Virus genome (UHGV): UHGV-0083157
Length of the DNA: 10,230 nucleotides
Origin: a virus
Strand: one strand, 5' to 3'
The notes below the pieces were generated by a model. The model saw nothing but the letters and a program-made list of their open reading frames with translations. It had not been told where the DNA came from and did no database searches. Positions 1-9,939 of the stretch are shown piece after piece. Within the stretch, counting starts at the first letter, position 1; each line of letters starts with the position of its first letter. The translations under genes were made by a program, and so were the position numbers.

Positions 1-66
1 TAGTTTATATGGTTAAAATTCGAGTTTTGCAAACTTGGGAACTGAGTTCAATTCTCAGTGACTCCA
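1..66 (+). tRNA. tRNA-Ala (anticodon TGC), 5' end truncated by window edge (window starts at about tRNA position 8)
   Basis: Manual fold: D-stem 3-6/16-19, anticodon stem 21-25/33-37, loop TTTGCAA (26-32), T-arm CTGAG-TTCAATT-CTCAG (42-58), 3' acceptor strand 59-65 with T at position 70 (consistent with G3:U70 Ala identity), discriminator A66, encoded CCA 67-69. Confidence 0.7.
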
Positions 67-75
67 CCAATTAGT

Positions 76-147
76 GCATCCATAGTTTAAACGGGAAAAT
101 TACAGTCTTCCAAACTGATGTTGAGGGTTCGATTCCCTCTGGATGCT
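76..147 (+). tRNA. tRNA-Gly (anticodon TCC)
   Basis: Acceptor GCATCCA (76-82) pairs perfectly with TGGATGC (140-146); T-arm GAGGG-TTCGATT-CCCTC (123-139); anticodon loop CTTCCAA (107-113); discriminator T147; CCA 148-150. D-arm pairing is weak. Confidence 0.62.
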
Positions 148-156
148 CCAAATAAT

Positions 157-230
157 GCTGCTTTCGTATAATTGGCTATTGCACATCCCTTGTAAGGATG
201 GAGATGCAGGTTCGAGTCCTGTGAGCAGCA
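157..230 (+). tRNA. tRNA-Thr (anticodon TGT)
   Basis: Acceptor GCTGCTT (157-163) pairs with GAGCAGC (223-229); anticodon stem CATCC/GGATG perfect (184-188/196-200), loop CTTGTAA (189-195); T-arm GCAGG-TTCGAGT-CCTGT (206-222); discriminator A230; CCA 231-233. Confidence 0.7.
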
Positions 231-329
231 CCAATTTTGAGGTCAAGTGAAAGACCGCTTGAGTCAACTGAAGACCGTAACAAATTCCACGGAGTTGAGT
301 TAGCGGCACAACTTCAGACTTCTTTTCAT

Positions 330-401
330 ACTCGCTTAGTTTATATGGTAAAGCCCCATCCTTACAAGTTGGTGAAGAAGGTTCAAGTCCTTCAGCGAGT
401 A
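330..401 (+). tRNA. tRNA-Val (anticodon TAC)
   Basis: Acceptor ACTCGCT (330-336) pairs with AGCGAGT (394-400); TA at positions 8-9; D-stem GTTT/AAGC; anticodon loop CTTACAA (361-367); T-arm GAAGG-TTCAAGT-CCTTC (377-393); discriminator A401; CCA 402-404. Confidence 0.62.
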
Positions 402-406
402 CCAAT

Positions 407-481
407 GTTCCAGTATCCCAATTGGCAGAGGATGCAAGCTCAAACCTTGTATTAGTGACGGTTCGAATCCGTCTTGGAACA
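407..481 (+). tRNA. tRNA-Leu-like (anticodon CAA), short variable region (type-I-like)
   Basis: Acceptor GTTCCAG (407-413) pairs with TTGGAAC (474-480); D-arm TCC-CAATTGGCAGA-GGA (3-bp stem, large loop); anticodon stem GCAAG/CTTGT (434-438/446-450), loop CTCAAAC (439-445); T-arm GACGG-TTCGAAT-CCGTC (457-473); discriminator A481 (matches Leu identity A73); CCA 482-484. Variable region only about 6 nt. Confidence 0.58.
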
Positions 482-489
482 CCAATTTT

Positions 490-494
490 AGGAG
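490..494 (+). promoter_or_regulatory. Shine-Dalgarno AGGAG for ORF 501-713
   Basis: AGGAG at 490-494, 6-nt spacer, ATG at 501. Confidence 0.4.
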
Positions 495-500
495 ATTCCT

Positions 501-713
501 ATGAAGCCTTATGGTAGACACGGTAAAGTTGAAATTGCAAGTTGTGGTTGCTGTGCTTCTCACGATGGTGAAGAAGATTACTACAAGTGGCGTATAGACC
601 ATCGTAGACGCTTTCTCAGAAGAGATAAGAAGAGAGCTAGACAGGAATCTCAAAAGAACATTGCAGAATTAGTTCAAATGGATAGAGCAGCAACCTACGA
701 AGTTGTTTGTTAG
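501..713 (+). CDS. Hypothetical small basic protein (70 aa, Cys-x-Cys-Cys motif, Arg/Lys-rich); 3' end overlaps tRNA-Arg
   Basis: ATG with strong SD at optimal spacing; open frame to TAG 711-713. The last ~50 nt of coding sequence coincide with tRNA-Arg (663-736), so this may be spurious. No recognisable domain. Confidence 0.35.
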   Translation: MKPYGRHGKVEIASCGCCASHDGEEDYYKWRIDHRRRFLRRDKKRARQESQKNIAELVQMDRAATYEVVC

Positions 714-736
714 GGGTTCGAATCCCTTATTCTGCA
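663..736 (+). tRNA. tRNA-Arg (anticodon ACG)
   Basis: Acceptor GCAGAAT (663-669) pairs perfectly with ATTCTGC (729-735); TA 670-671; D-arm GTTC-AAATGGATA-GAGC; anticodon stem GCAAC/GTTGT (690-694/702-706), loop CTACGAA (695-701); T-arm AGGGG-TTCGAAT-CCCTT (712-728); discriminator A736; CCA 737-739. Confidence 0.75.
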
Positions 737-758
737 CCAATTTAAAGAGGCTATTTAA

Positions 759-1316
759 ATGAGATATTTGAAGTATGCTTCATGGATTTTCCTAGCTTTG
801 CTAGAGCCATTTGCAGCAATCTTAGCAGTAATCTTAGCACCCTTTGTGGTTCCATTCTACAGTGAGAAGAAAGGTCACCTGCCTTTTGGATTCAGATGGA
901 TGGAAACTTATGACAACCAGATTGACGGTGACAAAGGTCACGTTGAACGATGGGCTAAGATTCGAAAGATTGGTAAGCTCGGTGTTTATATGCAGAGAGT
1001 TGGATGGCTCTGGAGAAACAAAGCTTATAACTTCTCTTACCATGTATTAGGAAGAGATGTAAAAGATGTTACTAAGTGGAAAGGTAATATCAACGTAAGT
1101 TCTAACCCTGAAGATAATCAGACAGGTTATCTACTGATGTGGAACAGTAATGCTTGGGGATTATTCGCTTTTATCCCATCAATTAAAGTCTTTGGTAAAC
1201 AGTTTTACTGGAGAATTTATGTTGGTTGGAAGCTTAAAAGTGTTGTCCCAGAAGAAAGAGCATTCTCAAGGGAAAGAATTATGTTGGCATTCTTTATTCA
1301 TCCACTAAGAAAGTAA
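759..1316 (+). CDS. Hypothetical membrane protein (185 aa; N-terminal hydrophobic segment, Trp/Tyr/Lys-rich remainder)
   Basis: ATG 759 preceded by AAGAGG (745-750, 8-nt spacer); uninterrupted frame to TAA 1314-1316; N-terminal stretch WIFLALLEPFAAILAVILAPFVVPF is a predicted TM helix. Embedded between tRNA-Arg and tRNA-Gln with 8 nt to the next tRNA. Confidence 0.6.
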   Translation: MRYLKYASWIFLALLEPFAAILAVILAPFVVPFYSEKKGHLPFGFRWMETYDNQIDGDKGHVERWAKIRKIGKLGVYMQRVGWLWRNKAYNFSYHVLGRDVKDVTKWKGNINVSSNPEDNQTGYLLMWNSNAWGLFAFIPSIKVFGKQFYWRIYVGWKLKSVVPEERAFSRERIMLAFFIHPLRK

Positions 1317-1324
1317 AGATTTAA

Positions 1325-1397
1325 AGGGGATTAGTTTACAAGGTTAAAACCTCGGTCTTTGAAATCGAAGAAGTTGGTTCAATTCCAACATCCCCCG
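1325..1397 (+). tRNA. tRNA-Gln (anticodon TTG)
   Basis: TA 1332-1333; D-stem GTTT/AAAC perfect; anticodon stem TCGGT/ATCGA (1352-1356/1364-1368), loop CTTTGAA (1357-1363); T-arm GTTGG-TTCAATT-CCAAC (1373-1389); 3' acceptor ATCCCCC (1390-1396); discriminator G1397 (Gln identity G73); CCA 1398-1400. The 1:72 pair is A/C, a weak first pair. Confidence 0.62.
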
Positions 1398-1402
1398 CCA
1401 AT

Positions 1403-1478
1403 GCTCCATTACTCCAATTGGCAGAGAGGCCAGACTTAAAATCTGTGTTATGTATCGGTTCGAATCCGATATGGAGTA
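1403..1478 (+). tRNA. tRNA-Leu-like (anticodon TAA), short variable region (type-I-like)
   Basis: Acceptor GCTCCAT (1403-1409) pairs with ATGGAGT (1471-1477); D-arm CTC-CAATTGGCAGA-GAG (same architecture as the 407-481 tRNA); anticodon loop CTTAAAA (1435-1441); T-arm ATCGG-TTCGAAT-CCGAT (1454-1470); discriminator A1478; CCA 1479-1481. Variable region about 7 nt. Confidence 0.58.
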
Positions 1479-1488
1479 CCAAATTAAT

Positions 1489-1561
1489 AGCAGTGTAGCA
1501 TAACTGGCAATGCTCCAGCCTCTGAAGCTGAAAGATTAAGGTTCAAATCCTTACGCTGCTG
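1489..1561 (+). tRNA. tRNA-Gln (anticodon CTG)
   Basis: Acceptor AGCAGTG (1489-1495) pairs with CGCTGCT (1554-1560); D-stem GCAT/ATGC perfect; anticodon loop CTCTGAA (1520-1526); T-arm TAAGG-TTCAAAT-CCTTA (1537-1553); discriminator G1561; CCA 1562-1564. Confidence 0.62.
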
Positions 1562-1595
1562 CCACTTCTAAGGGTTCTTACGAGAGTCCTTACAT

Positions 1596-1669
1596 GTGGC
1601 CTTATCATAAATGGATAATGACCCATGCTGTGAACATGGTCTATATGGGTTCGATTCCCGTAGGTCACC
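1596..1669 (+). tRNA. tRNA-His (anticodon GTG)
   Basis: Acceptor GTGGCCT (1596-1602) pairs with AGGTCAC (1662-1668); D-stem TCAT/ATGA perfect; anticodon stem CCATG/CATGG perfect (1623-1627/1635-1639), loop CTGTGAA (1628-1634); T-arm ATGGG-TTCGATT-CCCGT; discriminator C1669 (His identity C73); CCA 1670-1672. The -1 position is T, so no encoded G-1. Confidence 0.75.
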
Positions 1670-1680
1670 CCAAATTTAAT

Positions 1681-1753
1681 GGGTTAAGTAGCTTATATGG
1701 TTAAAGCGCGTGTCTGAAAAACATGAGAAGAGGGTTCAAATCCCACTAACCCG
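1681..1753 (+). tRNA. tRNA-Phe (anticodon GAA), irregular acceptor/T-arm geometry
   Basis: D-arm GCTT-ATATGGTTA-AAGC (1691-1707); anticodon stem CGTGT/ACATG (1709-1713/1721-1725), loop CTGAAAA (1714-1720); T-loop TTCAAAT (1735-1741); acceptor GGGTTA(A) pairs with (C)TAACCC; CCA 1754-1756. One extra nucleotide near positions 8-9 or a mismatched T-stem pair, so boundaries are +/-1 nt. Confidence 0.55.
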
Positions 1754-1773
1754 CCAATTTCAAAAGGTGCTTA

Positions 1774-2508
1774 ATGAAAGAGATGACAGAACAAGGTAAA
1801 GGGATTTTCAATCTCCTGAAATCCGGTAACGGGTTTTCTAACCCTCTTATTACCGGTGCAGCAATCCTTGGTGGCACAATTGCTGCTTCTACTTCATTAG
1901 TAAGCTCTCTTAGCTCGGTATCAGACCCTACTGTACAAGATAAGCTTATTGCGGCTGGTTTAACAGTAGCACTATTAAGTAGCTTTACAACAAGTCTGGG
2001 AAGCACAACCTCAACAACCAATACACTGACCAAATATGGACAGAAGTCTGTAGATGAGTTTTCACAGCGTATGCAAGTAGCTAAAGGTTACTCTAACGTT
2101 ATGGGAGCAGCAGGTGAACAGGTTGGTTGTACTCCATTTAGTGGAATCATGGGAGTTGCTACTGAGTACGGTAACAAAGCAATGGAACTGATTAACACCT
2201 CTTTAGATGCTGTGAATGACGTTCTAAGCGATTTACAAGATGCAATTGACCAAGGACTAGCAACCATCGAAGAACTCGCCTCACAAGCCGTTACAGCGAT
2301 TAATCAGGGCATTGCTAAGATTACTGCATATGCTAATGAGGTCACTCAGATGATTGCAGATGAAGCAGCGTTAATTGCTGATTACTTGAAAACGAATATT
2401 AATGGTTTCCTTGCAGGTGTCTTACCAGACTGGTTTGATGATGCTTGTAAAACTGGCGTGATTGATTCAATCGCAACTCCAGAAATGAAGGATGCCTTGA
2501 ACAAATAA
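1774..2508 (+). CDS. Hypothetical protein (244 aa; Ser/Thr/Ala/Gly-rich low-complexity N-terminal half with a hydrophobic segment, acidic helical C-terminal half)
   Basis: ATG 1774 with AAAGG/AAGGTG upstream (1763-1769); open frame to TAA 2506-2508; sits 17 nt after the CCA of tRNA-Phe and 2 nt before tRNA-Ser. No recognisable catalytic motif. Confidence 0.6.
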   Translation: MKEMTEQGKGIFNLLKSGNGFSNPLITGAAILGGTIAASTSLVSSLSSVSDPTVQDKLIAAGLTVALLSSFTTSLGSTTSTTNTLTKYGQKSVDEFSQRMQVAKGYSNVMGAAGEQVGCTPFSGIMGVATEYGNKAMELINTSLDAVNDVLSDLQDAIDQGLATIEELASQAVTAINQGIAKITAYANEVTQMIADEAALIADYLKTNINGFLAGVLPDWFDDACKTGVIDSIATPEMKDALNK

Positions 2509-2510
2509 TT

Positions 2511-2600
2511 GGAAGATTAACCCTAAAAGGTAAGGGAACAGTTTGCTAAACTGTCAGTAACCGAGAAATCGGCGTACCAGTTCAAGTCTGGTATCTTCCT
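2511..2600 (+). tRNA. tRNA-Ser (anticodon GCT), type II with long variable arm
   Basis: Acceptor GGAAGAT (2511-2517) is the perfect complement of ATCTTCC (2593-2599); anticodon stem ACAGT/ACTGT perfect (2538-2542/2550-2554), loop TTGCTAA (2543-2549); long variable arm with CCGA-GAAA-TCGG stem (2555-2575); T-arm ACCAG-TTCAAGT-CTGGT; discriminator T2600; CCA 2601-2603. Confidence 0.8.
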
Positions 2601-2610
2601 CCAATTTAAT

Positions 2611-2683
2611 GCGTCGATGACAGAAATGGCTATGTGCCTGTCTGCAAAACAGGATTATGAGGGTTCGACTCCCTTTCGACGCT
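2611..2683 (+). tRNA. tRNA-Cys (anticodon GCA)
   Basis: Acceptor GCGTCGA (2611-2617) is the perfect complement of TCGACGC (2676-2682); anticodon stem CCTGT/ACAGG perfect (2637-2641/2649-2653), loop CTGCAAA (2642-2648); T-arm GAGGG-TTCGACT-CCCTT; discriminator T2683 (Cys identity U73); CCA 2684-2686. Confidence 0.8.
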
Positions 2684-2721
2684 CCAAATTATTTTACTCT
2701 CTCTCAAAATAAAATAATAAC

Positions 2722-2780
2722 GCCCTGCTACGAGTATTCTTCCTTTCGCTACCGAAGAGTATTTTTAGACAGGGCTTTTT
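2722..2780 (+). terminator. Putative rho-independent terminator (long imperfect hairpin plus T-tract) downstream of the tRNA array
   Basis: GCCCTG (2722-2727) pairs with CAGGGC (2770-2775), with an inner TCTTC/GAAGA stem (2738-2742/2754-2758), immediately followed by TTTTT (2776-2780). Confidence 0.45.
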
Positions 2781-2794
2781 TACAGATGTATACT
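2765..2794 (+). promoter_or_regulatory. Candidate sigma70-like promoter (TTAGAC - 18 nt - TATACT)
   Basis: -35-like TTAGAC 2765-2770 and -10-like TATACT 2789-2794; AT-rich context. Weak sequence-only call; it overlaps the preceding terminator stem. Confidence 0.2.
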
Positions 2795-2846
2795 TTATAA
2801 GAAGACTTATACAGTATGTCTCTGGCATACATTGTGGTTTCTCCTT

Positions 2847-2870
2847 GACGGTCTCTGCGCCGTCTTTTTT
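2847..2870 (+). terminator. Putative rho-independent terminator/attenuator hairpin directly upstream of the packaging-head operon
   Basis: GACGG (2847-2851), 8-nt loop, CCGTC (2860-2864), followed by TTTTTT (2865-2870). Confidence 0.45.
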
Positions 2871-2908
2871 AAGGGGAGCCATTCACTTATTATTTTTGGA
2901 GAAATACA

Positions 2909-3109
2909 ATGAACGAGACTAATGTTTACAAAGAACTTTATGATGCAAACAAAAGAGCCGAACTGTTACAGAACACTATTATTAGTGTTGCTCACCGTCT
3001 GGCTAATGCAACTGGTAAAGATATTAAAGAAACCAATATGGATGAACTGTTAGATGCAGTTGATGTAAAGTTTGGTGTTAAGTCTACCGAAGAAGTTGCT
3101 GCTGAATAA
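2909..3109 (+). CDS. Hypothetical small protein (66 aa) immediately upstream of the large terminase
   Basis: ATG 2909 with GGAG (2898-2901, 7-nt spacer); stop TAA 3107-3109; acidic, helical-looking. Too short for a confident small-terminase call. Confidence 0.5.
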   Translation: MNETNVYKELYDANKRAELLQNTIISVAHRLANATGKDIKETNMDELLDAVDVKFGVKSTEEVAAE

Positions 3110-3130
3110 TTCTATTTGCGGAGGCGCTTA

Positions 3131-4732
3131 ATGGATTTGAATGCTGTTAAGCAGAAGCGAGTGGAAGATGTAAGGAGAGTCCTAGCTGGAGAGTTGGGAC
3201 TTTCTGATGAAGTTAAAGATATTATCAAGTCATTTGGTAAAGACCCCTCTAAATTCCTTCCTACTCAGATTCTGACTTTATTAAGATACACTCCAGACCA
3301 AGTAAGACTTATCTTCAAACTTATGACTGATAAGAACTATGTAGCTCCACAACCCGGCTCTCAGGAAGTATTTCTTAACACAAATGCTGACTTAGTTCTG
3401 TATGGTGGTGCTGCTGGTGCTGGTAAGACTGCTGCTTTGCTGATGGATTCACTCAGATTTATCGAAGACCCTAACTATAACGCTGTATACTTCCGTCGAA
3501 ACACGACACAGTTACAAGGTGGTTTATGGCCTGCTGCGAAGAAGCTTTTTGGTAAGTTCGGTGGTGTCCCACATGAACAGAAGATGACTATTGTATTCCC
3601 TTCTGGGGCTACTATCAAGTTTACCTACTTAGAACTTGAAAAACACGCTGAAGGTCATCAGGGTATTGAATACTCAGCAATTTACTTTGACGAAGGTACA
3701 CACTTCTCTGCGTCACAGATTTCATACCTACAAACACGTCTTCGTTCTGGTGCTGAAGGTGACTCTTACATGAAGATTTCCATGAACCCAGACAGAGACC
3801 ACTTCATTTACGATTGGGTAGAACCATTCTTAGACGAAGAAGGTTATCCAGACCCTGAGAAATGTGGTCGTATTCGTTGGTATGTGATGAGTGATGGCGT
3901 GATGGTATCTGATTGGGATAGAGACAAGATTCTTGAAATGTTTCCTCTGGAGATTCCTCAGACGTATACTTTTATCTCTGGTACGATTGATGATAACCCA
4001 ATTCTTGACTTCTTGGAACCGAAGTATCGTGGTAAGCTTGAAAACAACACTCCAGTAAACGTTGCACGTTTGAGATTTGGTAACTGGAAAGCTCGTGCAG
4101 AAGGTTCTAACTATTGGCAAAGGCAATGGTGTGAGATTGTTGATTCAGTTCCACCTGATGTATTTGATGTTAGAGCATGGGACTTAGCGGCTACTTTACC
4201 TTCTGAAGTTAACCCTAACCCTGACTGGACAGCGGGTGTTAGAATGGCTAAATCTAAAAAAGATGGTTGCTATTATGTCATGAACGTAGTAAGATTTAGA
4301 GATAGACCTTCTGGAGTCGAGACACAAATTAACTTGACTGCTGAAAGCGACGGCAAACGTACTGGTATCTTTATTCCTCAAGACCCAGGCGCTGCTGGTA
4401 AATCCTACGCAACATCTCTTATCAGAAAACTTGCCGAGAAAGGTTATCGTGCAAGAGCCAAACCAACCAATAAAGATAAAGTTACCCGTTTTGCGGGTTT
4501 CTCTGCTGCTTCTGAAGCAGGATTGGTAAAAATCGTTAGAGGTAGCTGGAACGAAGCCTATTTCCAAGAACTTGAAGGTTTTTGTGGAGATGGGAAAACC
4601 AAGGATGACCAAGTGGATGCCACAAGCGATGCTTTCAACAGTCTCAACGAAGTAAAACTATTCAAGCCGCCTTCTATGGGTACTCACACTGATTTAGTGA
4701 GAAGCAATCCTTATGAGGGGCTTAGACGTTAA
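3131..4732 (+). CDS. Terminase large subunit (533 aa from ATG 3131; ORF track uses an upstream TTG at 3116)
   Basis: GGAGG (3120-3124) 6 nt before ATG 3131; Walker A-like LVLYGGAAGAGKTAA; Walker B-like AIYFDEGTHF; C-terminal nuclease-like region with VRAWDLAAT; size and position before the portal gene are typical of TerL. Confidence 0.85.
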   Translation: MDLNAVKQKRVEDVRRVLAGELGLSDEVKDIIKSFGKDPSKFLPTQILTLLRYTPDQVRLIFKLMTDKNYVAPQPGSQEVFLNTNADLVLYGGAAGAGKTAALLMDSLRFIEDPNYNAVYFRRNTTQLQGGLWPAAKKLFGKFGGVPHEQKMTIVFPSGATIKFTYLELEKHAEGHQGIEYSAIYFDEGTHFSASQISYLQTRLRSGAEGDSYMKISMNPDRDHFIYDWVEPFLDEEGYPDPEKCGRIRWYVMSDGVMVSDWDRDKILEMFPLEIPQTYTFISGTIDDNPILDFLEPKYRGKLENNTPVNVARLRFGNWKARAEGSNYWQRQWCEIVDSVPPDVFDVRAWDLAATLPSEVNPNPDWTAGVRMAKSKKDGCYYVMNVVRFRDRPSGVETQINLTAESDGKRTGIFIPQDPGAAGKSYATSLIRKLAEKGYRARAKPTNKDKVTRFAGFSAASEAGLVKIVRGSWNEAYFQELEGFCGDGKTKDDQVDATSDAFNSLNEVKLFKPPSMGTHTDLVRSNPYEGLRR

Positions 4733-4749
4733 CAATTCAGGTGAGAAGA
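4726..4749 (+). repeat. Translation-initiation-region repeat copy 1 (ACGTTAACAATTCAGGTGA + GAAGA) abutting the portal ATG and overlapping the TerL stop codon
   Basis: 19-nt core 4726-4744 is identical to 7919-7937; contains SD-like AGGTGA (4739-4744) 5 nt before ATG 4750. Confidence 0.7.
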
Positions 4750-6216
4750 ATGGCAGAAATTACAGAAACACAAGAAAACCTACCTCCATTCAGAATGGGT
4801 GAGGTTGGGAGCCTTGGTTTAAAGGTTCGTAATGGAAGAATCTACGAAGAACCTAGACAAGCTTTAAGATTCCCAGAAAGTATTAAAACTTTCCAACTAA
4901 TGATGCGTGACCCCGCTGTAGCGGCATCTGTAAACATTATTAAGATGTTTGTTAGAAAAGTCAACTGGAGATTTGTTCCTCCGAAGGGAAAAGAACAAGA
5001 CCCTAAGATGATTGAACGGGCAGACTTCTTTAACTCTCTGATGGATGACATGGAGCATGATTGGGCTGACTTTATTAACTCTGTAATGTCATTCTGTACT
5101 TACGGATTCTGCGTGAATGAGAAAGTTTACAAGAAGCGTCAGGGTAATAAAGGGAAATACCCTTCAAGATATAATGATGGTTTAATTGGTTGGGCTAAAC
5201 TCCCTATCAGAAACCAGTCAACTCTTGATAAATGGTATTTTGATTCAGACTATCGAAAAGTAACAGGTGTTAGACAGAATCTGAGAAACGTTTCACACAT
5301 TGCTGGAGCTATTAATCTGGCTGAACAGCCACTAACAAGAAAACTTCCAAGAAGTAAATTCTTGCTGTTCAAATATGATGATGAGTACGGTAACCCAGAA
5401 GGTCGTTCACCATTACTTAATGCTTATGTACCTTGGAAATATAAAGTCCAAATTGAAGAGTACGAAGCAGTTGGTGTTTCCAGAGACTTAGTAGGTATGC
5501 CAAAGATTGGTTTACCACCTGATTATCTGGATGAGAATGCTGAACCTGAAAAGAAAGCTTTCGTAGAATACTGCAAATCTGTAGTTAATGATATGATTGC
5601 AAATGACCGAGCAGGTTTAATCTGGCCTAGATTCATCGACCCAGAAACTAAAGAGGATATCTTTGAGTTCTCATTAGTATCTAGACAGGGTGCAAAGGCT
5701 TACGATACCGGAGCTATCATTGACCGTTATTCTAAGCAGATTATGATGGCGTTTATGTCAGACGTTCTTGCAATGGGTCAGTCAAAATATGGTTCATTCT
5801 CTTTAGCAGATTCTAAGACAAGTTTACTTGCAATGTCTGTAGATATTCTTCTGAAACAAATCAGAAACGTAATTAACCGTGACCTAGTAGCACAGACTTA
5901 CGCTCTGAATATGTGGGATGATGAAGAACACGTTCAAATCGTTTATGACGACATTGAAACTCCAGACCTTGAAGCTATTGGTGCTTACATTCAGAAGACC
6001 GTTGCAGTTGGTGCTATGGAAGTTGATAAGGAACTGTCTAACAAGCTTAGAGAACACATTGGATTACCACCTGCTGATGAGTCTCAACCTGTGTCTGAAG
6101 AATTATCTCCTAACACTCAAAGTCGTTCAGGTGATGGTTATAAGACTGCCGGAGAGGGAACTGCGAAGACCCCTTCAGCAAAAGACCCAAGTACAGCGAA
6201 TAAGGCAAATAAATAA
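4750..6216 (+). CDS. Portal protein (putative; 488 aa from ATG 4750; ORF track uses GTG 4741)
   Basis: Follows TerL directly; AGGTGA SD 5 nt upstream of ATG 4750; size about 490 aa with acidic/low-complexity C-terminal tail; position between terminase and prohead protease. No direct homology check was possible. Confidence 0.65.
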   Translation: MAEITETQENLPPFRMGEVGSLGLKVRNGRIYEEPRQALRFPESIKTFQLMMRDPAVAASVNIIKMFVRKVNWRFVPPKGKEQDPKMIERADFFNSLMDDMEHDWADFINSVMSFCTYGFCVNEKVYKKRQGNKGKYPSRYNDGLIGWAKLPIRNQSTLDKWYFDSDYRKVTGVRQNLRNVSHIAGAINLAEQPLTRKLPRSKFLLFKYDDEYGNPEGRSPLLNAYVPWKYKVQIEEYEAVGVSRDLVGMPKIGLPPDYLDENAEPEKKAFVEYCKSVVNDMIANDRAGLIWPRFIDPETKEDIFEFSLVSRQGAKAYDTGAIIDRYSKQIMMAFMSDVLAMGQSKYGSFSLADSKTSLLAMSVDILLKQIRNVINRDLVAQTYALNMWDDEEHVQIVYDDIETPDLEAIGAYIQKTVAVGAMEVDKELSNKLREHIGLPPADESQPVSEELSPNTQSRSGDGYKTAGEGTAKTPSAKDPSTANKANK

Positions 6217-6584
6217 TGGCTGAAGTTATCTCTATTTCAAATGCTACACGAGTGCATTCGTATAGAGGTGTTCTGGTTATTACTGATACGTTATCTGTAG
6301 AGGCTGGCTCAAGGGTCAGCCTTTCAGGTTATGTAAGTGATGGTGGAACCTCTAACGTTTTCACTATTTGCAGGTTACTTGATGCTCCAATGAACGGAAA
6401 TTCGTTTATTTCAAACAATTGTAGCGAAATTGTTAAAATTCTATTTGACAGTTCATGCCTTTTGGGTGTAAAGTTATATAACTGTGAGAATAAACGTATA
6501 AACGTTAATAGCGTTGAAGCTGCGTTCATTACCATTGACACAGCATTTCAATCCCCAATGACAGTAAACAAGATCGGAGTCTAA
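6216..6584 (+). CDS. Hypothetical protein (122 aa, beta-rich, 4 Cys), start overlaps the portal stop (TAATG)
   Basis: ATG 6216-6218 overlaps portal TAA 6214-6216 (translational coupling); open to TAA 6582-6584; no recognisable motif. Confidence 0.5.
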   Translation: MAEVISISNATRVHSYRGVLVITDTLSVEAGSRVSLSGYVSDGGTSNVFTICRLLDAPMNGNSFISNNCSEIVKILFDSSCLLGVKLYNCENKRINVNSVEAAFITIDTAFQSPMTVNKIGV

Positions 6585-6624
6585 CAGACTTGAGTACATT
6601 TTTTCACAAAATGATTACAAAGTA

Positions 6625-6652
6625 CTTGTCAAAGGTAAAGTGTATGATATGA
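6625..6652 (+). promoter_or_regulatory. Candidate sigma70-like promoter (TTGTCA - 16 nt - TATGAT) in the 135-nt gap before ORF 6720
   Basis: -35-like TTGTCA 6625-6630 and -10-like TATGAT 6647-6652 in an AT-rich non-coding gap. Sequence-only call. Confidence 0.25.
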
Positions 6653-6719
6653 TTGTAAATGTGGTGGATGAATCTGGTAACCATTCAACAGTCCTTAAAC
6701 AGAAAGTAAGGTTCAATTA

Positions 6720-7052
6720 ATGGGAACATTAACTATTGATGGTAAGAATAAAATCCTCGCCACGCTAACCCCAACGACTATTGTTTTACACAATGTAGAC
6801 CCAACGGCAGACCCTACAGCAAATAAGGTTACTCAGCCAGTGGCTATTTATTTCTCTGAACCGAACAACGGCTTAATCGCCTCAGAAGATACAGTCAAGA
6901 TTACTGTACCAGCTTCTGCAACGGTCTCACACTATAGCCTATGGGATGCCAACGATAAATGCGTGGCAACAGGTGCTCTTAGCAGCCCTCAATTCTTTGC
7001 TGAAGAAGGTATCTATGTTATCGCTTCAGTATCGGTGGATTTAAACAAATAG
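6720..7052 (+). CDS. Hypothetical protein (110 aa, Thr/Val/Ala-rich, likely beta-rich)
   Basis: ATG 6720 with AAGG (6707-6710) upstream; stop TAG 7050-7052, 10 nt before the protease ATG; no recognisable motif. Confidence 0.5.
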   Translation: MGTLTIDGKNKILATLTPTTIVLHNVDPTADPTANKVTQPVAIYFSEPNNGLIASEDTVKITVPASATVSHYSLWDANDKCVATGALSSPQFFAEEGIYVIASVSVDLNK

Positions 7053-7062
7053 GGTGAGTAAA

Positions 7063-8406
7063 ATGAGTTCGAATATCTTCAGACTTGCTGATAGATTATT
7101 CAACCAACCTTTACTAGCCACTGAATCTCTAGCTCACTCAGCAGCGACTTATGTAAATAACCGCTTGTTAGGTGAAGTTCAAGCAGCAGTCAATTTCGAC
7201 AAACCTAAAGGTGAGGCAAGAAGTCTTTTAAAAGTTAAAGACGACATTGCTATTATCCCTATTATGGGTGGCCTAACACATCGTATGACATTTATGGATG
7301 CAATGTGTACTGGTGGTCTAAGTTCTTATGAAGGTTTACGCAGAGGCTTCGACGAAGCTTTAGCAGATGAATCTATTAAGACGATTGTACTGCACGTTGA
7401 TTCTGGTGGTGGTGAAGCTTCAGGTTGTTTTGAATTAGCACGTCACATCGTAGCCTCCAGAGGCAAAAAGAAAATTGTAGCATATGTTGATGAGTTCGCA
7501 TGTTCCGCTGCGTATGCACTTGCATGTTCTGCTGATGAAGTAATTGCATCACCAGATGCAGATGTTGGTTCAATCGGTGTAATTATGGTTCACCAAGAAT
7601 TAACTAAAGCGTTTGAAAAGAATGGCGTTACAATTAACGTTATTAAAGCTGGTGAATTTAAAGGTTTGGGTTCCCCATTCCAAGCACTCTCAGAAGAAAG
7701 CAAAACAAGACTTCAACAGAGAATTAATGACACCTATAACACCTTCACAGGTTTTGTAGCTGATTCACGTAATATCTCCGAAGAAGCTGTAAAGAATACT
7801 GAGGCGAATGTTTATTCTGCTCAGGAAGCTCTTGAACTTGGTTTAATTAATTCAATCATGTCTCAAGATGATTTCTTAAATTACTTACAAGGTTCTGATG
7901 AAGCTCCTGTAAGTTTAAACGTTAACAATTCAGGTGAAGAAATGACTGAACAAGAAAAGCAAGAACTAGAGGCTCTACGCGCTCAGGTTGCTCAGATGAA
8001 AGCAAAAGAACAGGAAAAAACTATGTCTGAACTGACTGGTAAGATTTCTGCTTCTGCTGAAGCTTTCGGGTTTGACGCAACAGAAGCTGCTCAGGCTATC
8101 TTAGGCGCTGGTCTTGACAACCCTCTGAGTGTTCTCTTTATGAATGCTATGGAAGGTGCTAACCAGAAACTAAATGAAACTATCGCGGCTCATGCTTCTG
8201 CACTGTCAGAGAAAGATTCCGAAATCACTAAGCTGAAAGAAACTGCTGGTGCTGTTCTGGAACACTCTAACGCAATGGAAGAAATGGGTAATGACGGTGA
8301 AGCAGAACTGGTTGACGAAGAAAAACCTTCTGAAAACGCATCTGATGACACCGCAGAACAACGCAAACTGGCTCTCCAGAATGCTTTGAAATCTCTTATC
8401 AAATAA
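7063..8406 (+). CDS. Prohead (head maturation) protease, S49/SppA-like, fused to a C-terminal coiled-coil scaffold-like domain (447 aa from ATG 7063; ORF track uses GTG 7054)
   Basis: GGTGA (7053-7057) 5 nt before ATG 7063; motifs IPIMGGLTH, HVDSGGGEASG and EFACSAAYALACSAD resemble the S49 (lambda gpC / SppA) Ser-Lys peptidase fold; residues from about 295 onward are acidic, Ala/Glu/Lys/Gln-rich and heptad-like, as in scaffolding proteins. Confidence 0.8.
   Translation: MSSNIFRLADRLFNQPLLATESLAHSAATYVNNRLLGEVQAAVNFDKPKGEARSLLKVKDDIAIIPIMGGLTHRMTFMDAMCTGGLSSYEGLRRGFDEALADESIKTIVLHVDSGGGEASGCFELARHIVASRGKKKIVAYVDEFACSAAYALACSADEVIASPDADVGSIGVIMVHQELTKAFEKNGVTINVIKAGEFKGLGSPFQALSEESKTRLQQRINDTYNTFTGFVADSRNISEEAVKNTEANVYSAQEALELGLINSIMSQDDFLNYLQGSDEAPVSLNVNNSGEEMTEQEKQELEALRAQVAQMKAKEQEKTMSELTGKISASAEAFGFDATEAAQAILGAGLDNPLSVLFMNAMEGANQKLNETIAAHASALSEKDSEITKLKETAGAVLEHSNAMEEMGNDGEAELVDEEKPSENASDDTAEQRKLALQNALKSLIK
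7919..7941 (+). repeat. Translation-initiation-region repeat copy 2 (ACGTTAACAATTCAGGTGA + AGAA) abutting an internal in-frame ATG of the protease gene
   Basis: 19-nt core 7919-7937 is identical to 4726-4744; SD-like AGGTGA (7932-7937) 4 nt before ATG 7942. Confidence 0.7.
7942..8406 (+). CDS. Putative nested scaffolding protein (154 aa) translated from an in-frame internal start within the protease gene (lambda C/Nu3-like arrangement)
   Basis: In-frame ATG 7942 preceded by a strong SD and the exact portal TIR repeat; it lies at the boundary between the protease domain and the coiled-coil domain; product MTEQEKQELEALRAQVAQMKAKEQEK... is helical and acidic. Confidence 0.4.
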   Translation: MTEQEKQELEALRAQVAQMKAKEQEKTMSELTGKISASAEAFGFDATEAAQAILGAGLDNPLSVLFMNAMEGANQKLNETIAAHASALSEKDSEITKLKETAGAVLEHSNAMEEMGNDGEAELVDEEKPSENASDDTAEQRKLALQNALKSLIK

Positions 8407-8418
8407 GGAACACAAATA

Positions 8419-8796
8419 ATGGCATATGAAGGTTTTACTCACTTAGGTAACAGAGAACCACTGAATGATATCATTCTTTGGGAACAGATTACACCAACAG
8501 GTCACTCTCGTAAGGAGTACGCTCCAGTCGCTTCCACAGAATACCGTGTAGGTGAAGTTCTGAAAGCTGATGGAACCAAAGTTGCAGCAGGTGAAGAAGC
8601 TCAGGCTGACTCTGTTTGCATCGTTAACTTCTACGCAGACCTGCAACTGTCTTACCACGGTCAGTTGAAAGTTGTTGGTATCTACCGTGATGCTGAACTG
8701 AAAGACCTCTTAACTCTGGCTGATGGCGTTGACGCTGCTGCTGTTAAGACTGCTCTTGCAGCGAAAGGCATTGATTTCGTACCAACTGGCCTGTAA
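8419..8796 (+). CDS. Putative head decoration/auxiliary capsid protein (125 aa), in the gpD-equivalent position
   Basis: ATG 8419 with AGGA (8406-8409) upstream; stop TAA 8794-8796; small protein between protease/scaffold and major capsid gene, as in lambda-like head modules. Function assigned from position and size only. Confidence 0.45.
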   Translation: MAYEGFTHLGNREPLNDIILWEQITPTGHSRKEYAPVASTEYRVGEVLKADGTKVAAGEEAQADSVCIVNFYADLQLSYHGQLKVVGIYRDAELKDLLTLADGVDAAAVKTALAAKGIDFVPTGL

Positions 8797-8826
8797 TAAC
8801 AATAAGACATTCTGGAGAATTTTATA

Positions 8827-9939
8827 ATGGCATTAACTAATTCTGAAAAAAGCAGATTTTTCCTTGCTGACCTGACTGGTGAAGTCCAGTCTATCCCAAA
8901 TACTTACGGTTATATTTCCGGTTTGGGTCTTTTCCGTTCTGCCCCAATTACTCAGACTACTTTCCTGATGGATTTAACTGAGTCTGACATTAGCTTACTG
9001 GATGCAGTAGACCGTACCAGCCGTAAAGCTGAGACGAGTGCTCCAGAGAGAGTTAAGCAGATTAGCTTCCCAATGATGTACTTCAAGGAAGTGGAGAGCA
9101 TTACTCCTGATGAAATTCAGGGTGTACGTCAGCCAGGCACTGCAAACGAACTGACTACTGAAGCTATCGTTCGTGCTCGTAAGCTGATGAAGATTCGCAC
9201 CAAGTTCGATATTACTCGTGAGTTCTTGTTCATGCAAGCTCTGAAGGGTAAAGTAATCGACGCTAACGGTGTTCTGTACGCTGACCTGTTCAAGCAGTTC
9301 GACGTTGAGAAGAAGACTGTTTACTTCGACCTTGACAATCCAAACGCTGATATCGACGCTGCTATCGAAGAACTTCGTATGCACATGGAAGATGAAGCTA
9401 AAGTTGGTACTGTAATCAACGGTGAAGAAATTCACATCGTTGTTGACCGTCTGTTCTTCAGCAAGCTTATCAAGCATCCGAAGATTCGTGACGCATACCT
9501 TGCACAGCAGACTCCGCTGGCTTGGCAGCAGATTACTGGCTCTCTGAGAACTGGTGGTACTGATGGCGTTCAGGCGCACATGAACACATTCTACTATGGT
9601 GGTGTGAAGTTTGTTCAGTACAATGGTAAGTTCCAAGATAAGCGTGGTAAGACTCACGTTCTGGTAAGCATCGACGGCGTAGCAAACACTGTAGGTGTTG
9701 GTCATGCGTTCCCTAACGTTTCTATGTTGGGTGAAGCTAACAACATCTTCGAAGTTGCATATGGCCCATGTCCTAAGATGGGTTACGCAAATACTCTTGG
9801 TCAGGAACTGTACGTATTCGAATACGAAAAAGACCGTGACGAAGGTATTGACTTCGAAGCTCACTCTTACATGCTGCCATACTGCACACGTCCTCAGTTG
9901 CTGGTAGACGTTCGTTCTGACGCTGCACCAGAAGGCTAA
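8827..9939 (+). CDS. Major capsid protein, lambda gpE-like family (370 aa)
   Basis: ATG 8827 with GGAG (8813-8816) upstream; stop TAA 9937-9939; several segments resemble lambda gpE as recalled from memory (ALKGKV vs VLKGKY; YYGGVKFVQYNG vs MYGDVAIVVYSGQY); position after protease-scaffold-decoration genes. Confidence 0.8.
   Translation: MALTNSEKSRFFLADLTGEVQSIPNTYGYISGLGLFRSAPITQTTFLMDLTESDISLLDAVDRTSRKAETSAPERVKQISFPMMYFKEVESITPDEIQGVRQPGTANELTTEAIVRARKLMKIRTKFDITREFLFMQALKGKVIDANGVLYADLFKQFDVEKKTVYFDLDNPNADIDAAIEELRMHMEDEAKVGTVINGEEIHIVVDRLFFSKLIKHPKIRDAYLAQQTPLAWQQITGSLRTGGTDGVQAHMNTFYYGGVKFVQYNGKFQDKRGKTHVLVSIDGVANTVGVGHAFPNVSMLGEANNIFEVAYGPCPKMGYANTLGQELYVFEYEKDRDEGIDFEAHSYMLPYCTRPQLLVDVRSDAAPEG

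Follow-up and report, generated by a model that had tools for sequence, protein, structure and literature searches.

Why would the translation start region of one phage head gene recur, letter for letter, inside the coding sequence of another? This question is raised by a 10,230-nt stretch of the virus genome UHGV-0083157 (hereafter the window, meaning the whole stretch analysed; positions are counted from its first letter). Sequence matches identify the 10.2-kb window as the head module of a Suspvirus, a Felix O1-like myovirus of the Ounavirinae; the closest matches, at ~97–98% identity, are Suspvirus CHB7, EcSzw-1/2, mistaenkt, phiSUSP1 and SUSP2, and ~250 Felixounavirus and Mooglevirus genomes match at ~88% identity. 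An earlier note on this DNA had described an identical 19-nt sequence ahead of the portal gene and within the head maturation protease gene. It had proposed that the second copy belongs to a nested scaffold gene within the protease frame, and that the identity of the two copies reflects co-regulated translation of portal and scaffold or a shared regulator. The analysis below separates these proposals. The internal copy, together with the ATG behind it, is probably a real internal start of a nested C-terminal scaffold product, and for the portal copy the best explanation is an 8-nt patch templated from the internal site in a single genus. To this explanation as a whole, an ancestral nested scaffold start with a later templated copy at the portal gene, we assign a probability of roughly 0.6; the use of the internal ATG, the scaffold role of its product and the conversion mechanism are points that we infer from sequence comparison.

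An exact 19-nt repeat in the head module

The sequence ACGTTAACAATTCAGGTGA was found on the + strand at two exact sites, 4726–4744 and 7919–7937, and no further match was detected in the window with up to 3 mismatches allowed. The first copy ends 5 nt before ATG 4750, the start of the portal gene, and the second ends 4 nt before ATG 7942. Tolerating one mismatch lengthened the repeat to 23 nt (TTAG/TTAA ACGTTAACAATTCAGGTGA). Two matches appeared in 0 of 200 dinucleotide shuffles of the sequence. For genome-wide repeat and motif scans we used the related 86.7-kb genome EcSzw-2, in which the 19-mer was the longest dispersed exact repeat, leaving out early-region repeat families, tRNA genes and tail-fibre repeats; the longest repeats in ten first-order Markov shuffles of the same genome were 15–17 nt. 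Exact match search and shuffles thus confirmed the duplicate that had been reported, with an ATG 4–5 nt downstream of each copy. The 19-nt repeat is real and not a product of chance.

The two copies occupy different kinds of sequence. The portal-side copy (4726–4744, +) covers the last codon of the large terminase gene TerL (CGT), the TerL stop codon TAA, the intergenic spacer and the portal Shine-Dalgarno sequence (SD) AGGTGA. The internal copy (7919–7937, +) is coding throughout, made up of the N-V-N-N-S-G-E codons of the protease open reading frame (ORF), and holds the AGGTGA that would serve as the SD of the proposed nested start. Because the reading frame differs between the two copies, shared protein coding cannot account for their identity.

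A looser version of the motif, which the earlier note had placed at 7039–7065 ahead of the protease start, did not survive closer inspection: it consists merely of TTTAAAC and an SD and is compatible with chance, EcSzw-2 having 31 TTTAAAC sites. Of these 31 sites, just two, the protease start and the internal start, have an SD and an ATG behind the TTTAAAC; TTAAAC also lies upstream of the gene for a 110-aa head protein. TTTAAAC as a common upstream element was rejected, given that by a rough post-hoc estimate some 6-mer would be common to 3 of 8 translation initiation regions (TIRs) about half the time.

A predicted internal start at the domain boundary of the protease gene

The gene that holds the internal copy (7063–8406, +; ORF from GTG 7054) encodes an S49/SppA-like head maturation protease with a C-terminal scaffold-like domain. 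Its product matched PF01343 (E 4.6e-38), phrog_53 (E 2e-115), TIGR00706 (above cut-off) and SppA of the PDB (E 6e-21), and BLASTP aligned it to lambda C with 32% identity over 254 aa (E 3e-36); on these matches the protease is a homologue of lambda gpC. Translation likely begins at ATG 7063, which follows the SD AGGGTGA, and not at GTG 7054; relatives annotate a gene of 1344 nt. The S49/SppA matches, both in Pfam and to the PDB SppA, end at around residue 275–278. ATG 7942 is in the protease frame as codon 294 counted from ATG 7063 (297 from GTG 7054), just past the S49 domain, and the position that had been claimed for it, at the boundary between the protease and C-terminal domains, was therefore borne out. 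A single-sequence structure model gave coil at 277–295 and long helices from 296 onwards, with a mean predicted local distance difference test score (pLDDT) of 46, a low confidence at which the model is to be read for secondary-structure trends only.

Initiation at this ATG would yield a nested in-frame product (7942–8406, +) that is co-terminal with the protease, predicted to be helical, rich in Ala and Glu, and 154 aa long (16.5 kDa, isoelectric point (pI) 4.5), with the predicted N-terminus (M)TEQEKQELEALR. The C-terminal tail RKLALQNALKSLIK was conserved in all lineages, and R437, A440, L441 and A444 were invariant in six divergent sequences. The 154-aa domain gave no sequence match to any known scaffold family. 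Two large protein searches for standalone homologues of it returned 2 matches each, one of them a full-length 455-aa protease and the rest fragments of 85 and 69 aa.

The signals around ATG 7942 resemble those of established start sites. The SD AGGTGA lies 4 nt 5' of the ATG, and its predicted pairing energy with the anti-SD (–8.4 kcal/mol) equals that of the portal start and is close to that of the protease start (–8.5), the major capsid gene being weaker (–6.4); among 242 ATGs this energy ranks 8–9. The predicted unpaired probability of the SD-AUG segment was 0.66 (96th percentile of background positions), and the stretch from –30 to +19 was among the least structured windows (88th percentile). 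The RNA of the internal TIR folded no better than shuffles (z = 0.64), and the invariance of the surrounding block makes a covariation test impossible. A consensus scan of 7781–7940 for an internal sigma-70 promoter found none.

We examined nucleotide conservation across three genera, in 29 unique sequences of the protease gene. At 7903–7968 (+), from –39 to +26 around ATG 7942, lie 21 eligible codons that form the longest stretch of the gene without synonymous variation (permutation P = 0.0012). A block at 7781–7960 (+), ending at the internal start, is nearly invariant in nucleotides across the three genera (93–98% invariant columns). Synonymous variation was seen at 5 of 59 codons in this block, compared with 181 of the 376 codons outside it (Fisher P = 1.4e-9); the 29 sequences are related to one another, which makes both P values optimistic. 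Similar invariant blocks were found at the protease start and the capsid-gene start.

More distant relatives from Yersinia, Erwinia and Hafnia share 45–53% protein identity with this protease, with no nucleotide similarity detected, and their codons and residues at the boundary differ. Each of them has an SD-like motif and an ATG there: Yersinia phage P778 reads CAGGAGAcagaaATG (SQETEM), Erwinia phage phiEa21-4 reads GAGGAAttagaaATG (EELEM), shifted by two residues, and Hafnia phage SarahDanielle reads cAGGTactgaaATG (TGTEM). The record of Salmonella phage GE_vB_B3 (L066), flagged as unverified and with no ORF of at least 200 aa in the three forward frames scanned, was left out. In metagenome contig L067, where the protease gene is interrupted by an N-gap at 569–578, the gene caller started a 152-aa gene (632–1090) at the same internal ATG, a choice that counts in favour of this start. 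This 152-aa 'standalone' homologue was rejected as an artefact of the gap. The internal site of the same contig reads ACGTTGACAATTC, changing Asn to Asp, and the 19-mer is so not absolutely invariant in nature.

In the records examined, the protease gene is annotated only as 'head maturation protease', with no nested gene and no scaffold gene named. Two overlapping coding sequences in the original Felix O1 record were considered as a possible nested pair and set aside, as they are alternative N-terminal starts of the protease gene. The 2010 Felix O1 genome paper identified no scaffold gene, and gp56 was not among the virion proteins that it detected; the absence of gp56 from the virion proteome fits removal of a scaffold and says nothing on initiation. 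No other scaffold gene was evident among the head-module ORFs or in the annotations of relatives, the detailed look being at the head module only.

Lambda provides the closest precedent. Its scaffold Nu3 is nested in C (PMC8508860, citing Shaw and Murialdo 1980), and the lambda record annotates nu3 in frame within C. The two systems have homologous S49 protease domains and the same gene order (portal, protease with a C-terminal extension, small D-like protein, E-type major capsid protein), and initiation at an internal in-frame ATG would in either case yield an acidic co-terminal product of ~16–21 kDa: Nu3 has 20.8 kDa and pI 4.5, compared with 16.5 kDa and pI 4.5 for the product predicted here, and the compositions are similar. 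The C-terminal domains, in contrast, have no detectable sequence similarity, and this phage, unlike lambda, is a virulent myovirus with a T4-type TerL, a Mu-type portal and an internal start that is predicted. At residues 303–314 of lambda gpC, the Met in SGGRMTKE aligned with that in SGEEMTEQ here; the annotated nu3 start is 69 residues upstream.

Domain boundary, nucleotide conservation, the SD and ATG in relatives and homology to gpC together support the nested scaffold architecture that had been proposed, which matches the classical lambda C/Nu3 arrangement and is so far unannotated in the records examined. Ribosomes loading on AGGTGA would start at Met 294 (297 from GTG 7054) and make the C-terminal domain of the protease as a separate acidic helical protein of 154 aa. 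This protein would act as the capsid scaffold, in excess over the full-length protease-scaffold fusion, and the conserved C-terminal tail, common to both, may target both to the procapsid as in lambda Nu3 and gpC.

Likely origin of the portal copy

To compare the two sites, we aligned 28 related IMG/VR loci at both of them. In this alignment the internal site was identical in Suspvirus and Felixounavirus (TTTAAACGTTAACAATTCAGGTGAAGAAATG), and in Mooglevirus it differed at three bases, ACGTT being replaced by ACACA (AACACAAAC...). Each of 24 non-Suspvirus IMG/VR contigs had a single copy of the 19-mer, the internal one. At the portal junction, the 19-mer was restricted to Suspvirus: in the phage collection it was carried there by 10 records, corresponding to 8 genomes, and among the IMG/VR contigs with the 19-mer by the two from Suspvirus. 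Conservation of the 19-mer in related phages was thus seen at the internal site, in three genera, but not at the portal site, where it is confined to Suspvirus.

Across genera, no TIR of the head module varies more than the TerL-portal junction. In Felixounavirus this junction reads ACGTT-GATAGCT-AGGTGAGAAGAATG, with ACGTTGATAGCT-AGGTGA before and including the SD; a fourth lineage (L019/L032) reads ACGCTAATGAAGCGGTGAGATGAATG, Mooglevirus reads ACGATAAT-AGGTAGAAAGAATG, and the Yersinia and Erwinia relatives have nearly no spacer between TerL and portal. The Suspvirus portal TIR is set apart from the Felixounavirus GATAGCT by the 8-nt patch AACAATTC at 4731–4738 (+). Going from GATAGCT to AACAATTC takes four substitutions and one insertion, and each of these five changes agrees with the internal site; ACGTT and AGGTGA on either side were common to both beforehand. 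The internal site being found in three genera and the portal copy in one, the internal site is the older and the donor, and the portal copy is derived.

Templated mutagenesis, or short-patch conversion, between imperfect direct repeats was reportedly described in phage T4 by Schultz and Drake in 2008. The change seen here is like the T4 case in being a cluster within 8 nt that matches an ectopic sequence, with microhomology on both sides; it is unlike it in being reconstructed from comparative genomics over evolutionary time and in the 3.2 kb between donor and recipient. As the simplest candidate mechanism, comparison suggests ectopic template switching or a short-patch gene conversion across the 3.2 kb that separate the two imperfect direct repeats. 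The portal copy would have arisen once, in the Suspvirus ancestor, at a TerL-portal junction that already resembled the internal site (ACGTT ... AGGTGA GAAGAATG). With the internal site, 3.2 kb away, acting as template, the 8-nt patch would have been overwritten, and the outcome would be a normal ribosome-binding site for portal with the TerL stop codon inside it.

Alternative explanations

A number of observations weigh against the explanation given above. The nested product is a prediction from sequence, the ancestral state of the Suspvirus junction is a reconstruction, and conversion accounts for the origin of the patch, not for its fixation. The annotated lambda nu3 start is at residue 239 of C, inside the S49 domain, whereas the start proposed here is at residue 294, after the domain, a non-homologous position. 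Besides the relatedness of the sequences behind the P values, the Hafnia relative has a weak motif (AGGT), acidic linkers give SD-like strings unaided through their Glu and Gly codons, and the invariant block reaches ~160 nt 5' of ATG 7942, beyond the needs of a ribosome-binding site, such that another nucleotide-level function or a recombinational sweep could contribute to it. Phage P2 gpO belongs to a different protease family and is a single self-cleaving polypeptide. It resembles the present protein in joining protease and scaffold domain in a single ORF and is unlike it with respect to the SD and ATG conserved here at the domain boundary; with its N-terminal protease and C-terminal scaffold domain in one ORF (PMC8508860), it shows that such a fusion can work without internal initiation. 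On this precedent, the gene might make the full-length protease-scaffold fusion only and release the scaffold by autoproteolysis, in which case the SD-like string and the Met would be by-products of a linker with purine-rich Glu and Gly codons, and their conservation, in a block longer than a ribosome-binding site, would have other causes; that a nested gene is annotated in none of the records examined agrees with this. We regard such a fusion-only gene as unlikely, although it deserves serious consideration. Synonymous constraint peaks around the SD and ATG, four lineages keep the Met and an SD-like motif despite changing neighbours, the SD is as strong as those of real starts and predicted to be unpaired, and the lambda homologue uses a nested start. 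Far more doubtful, and the least probable of the readings that we considered, is recoding at the heptamer T_TTA_AAC (7914–7920, +), a speculative feature of –1 slippery form directly 5' of the internal 19-mer with TTA and AAC as zero-frame codons. A –1 frameshift there would read CGT TAA, terminating two codons on at the TAA within the 19-mer (7923–7925) and giving a protease-only product, with possible reinitiation at ATG 7942. The heptamer is in the required frame and invariant in three genera, and the arrangement of stop, SD and ATG 14–18 nt downstream is that of the TerL-portal junction, where the same two codons end TerL at the portal copy. But the only downstream structure is a 5-bp AU-rich stem rather than a strong stimulatory one, ribosomes slip poorly on UUUAAAC in E. 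coli, the heptamer is missing from the Yersinia, Erwinia and Hafnia relatives, and its conservation is uninformative within a block that is invariant as a whole.

Other readings concern the identity of the two copies. If the 19-mer were a shared translational operator, either bound by a phage or host factor or matching initiation rates, it would coordinate the synthesis of portal and scaffold. The identity does take in the SD and upstream context at nearly equal distance from the ATG in both TIRs, it is fixed in 8 of 8 Suspvirus genomes, and portal and scaffold interact, as a matter of general knowledge, in procapsid nucleation of other phages. Yet Felixounavirus, Mooglevirus and the more distant relatives build the same head with unrelated portal TIRs and without a portal copy. 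A scan of EcSzw-2 with up to 5 mismatches found only the two sites at 3 mismatches or fewer, the next best sites having 4–5 mismatches and none of them being at a gene start. Portal is needed in 12 copies and scaffold in hundreds, and equal TIRs offer no obvious advantage. No candidate for a regulator emerged, in an analysis that included no search aimed at one. Co-regulation predicts conservation at both genes or additional sites; as neither holds, the shared-regulator proposal of the earlier note is left unsupported, and an operator appears quite improbable. A shade less probable again is the broader notion that the Suspvirus 19-mer is a functional cis-element at both places, whether as an operator for an RNA-binding factor or as a cassette for recoding and reinitiation, which would combine a slip on T_TTA_AAC, a stop at CGT-TAA and a restart at the ATG 14–18 nt downstream and, if true, would give protease-only, fusion and scaffold-only products from one gene. 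Repeated start regions do exist in this type of genome. The early region of EcSzw-2 (L035, positions 1–7500) carries multi-copy exact repeats of 20–50 nt that include SD and ATG (reverse complement ...TCCTAAACTGGAGATTCAAAATG), indicating that many early genes have promoter/terminator and start-region cassettes in common. These cassettes are multi-copy, intergenic and located in an early cluster, unlike the 19-mer, which has two copies in a late head module, one of them within a coding sequence. Chance convergence of two strong ribosome-binding sites in an AT-rich genome would need no common history at all. The SD makes up 6 of the 19 nt and is functionally convergent, and the Felixounavirus junction had ACGTT and AGGTGA in common with the internal site without being a copy. 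Against this stand the shuffles of the window and of EcSzw-2 described above and the five clustered changes, all toward the internal site, for which a rough estimate gave a probability of 0.003 or less; we hold convergence to be highly improbable. An ancestral nested start with one later patch at the portal gene is the reading that we prefer, and the portal copy has the look of an accident of evolution, not of an element for shared control.

Other features of the window

Upstream of the terminase gene, the window carries 12 tRNA genes (Gly, Thr, Val, Leu x2, Arg, Gln x2, His, Phe, Ser, Cys) at 76–2686, with small ORFs (DUF7338, DUF7217) between them. TerL, a T4-type large terminase, occupies 3116/3131–4732 with its stop TAA at 4730–4732. 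The TTG at 3116, called mechanically as the ORF start, is probably wrong, as ATG 3131 has a strong SD (GGAGG) and fits the lengths annotated in relatives. The portal gene (4750–6216, +; 1467 nt in annotated relatives) starts at ATG 4750 and is Mu gp29-like (PF06074, E 2.9e-27). It is followed by genes for a 166-aa protein (phrog_3977, function unknown) and a 110-aa 'head protein', by the protease gene, by the gene for a 125-aa decoration-like protein (8419–8796) and by that for the major capsid protein of the lambda gpE type (8827–9939).

At 6572–6584 the window reads GATCGGAG where phiSUSP1, EcSzw-2 and AYO145A have AGAG, a net gain of 4 nt. This shifts the frame of the conserved 166-aa gene, which stops at 6582–6584 after 122 aa and leaves 6585–6719 without an ORF; the gene is either a true pseudogene or affected by a sequencing or assembly error. 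A 240-nt block (6581–6820), 90–95% invariant across genera, runs from the end of the 166-aa gene into the beginning of the gene for the 110-aa head protein. Within it, 6626–6653 matches a sigma-70-like promoter (TTGTCA, 16 nt, TATGAT with an extended TG) and may be a candidate internal promoter for the downstream head genes.

Two further pairs of similar sequences were observed. The junction before the gene that follows portal (6199–6220, AATAAGGCAAATAAATAATGGC) and that before the gene that follows the protease/scaffold gene (8402–8423, AATAAGGAACACAAATAATGGC) match at 19 of their 22 nt. All three genera have this pair, in contrast to the 19-mer, and the portal and scaffold genes are thus bordered at either end by junctions that resemble each other. 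The longest imperfect direct repeat within 4400–9000 pairs 5574–5605 with 6630–6661 (32 nt, 78% identity, common ATGATATGATTG-AAATG); one copy is inside the portal gene, and the other overlaps the promoter-like site of the 6581–6820 block.

Implications

About 300 Felix O1-like phages have been sequenced, and they are used in Salmonella typing, biocontrol and therapy. A conserved nested start, if recognised, would fill the scaffold gap left by the 2010 Felix O1 genome paper. The heads of these phages would then be assembled from a gpC-like fusion together with an excess of a Nu3-like scaffold, and the lambda C/Nu3 arrangement would be extended to a virulent myovirus lineage. The history of the second copy carries a more general message, namely that exact repeats at gene starts need not signal shared regulation. 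If the 8-nt patch was copied as we propose, it would be a clear case from nature in which an ectopic template has overwritten a ribosome-binding site.

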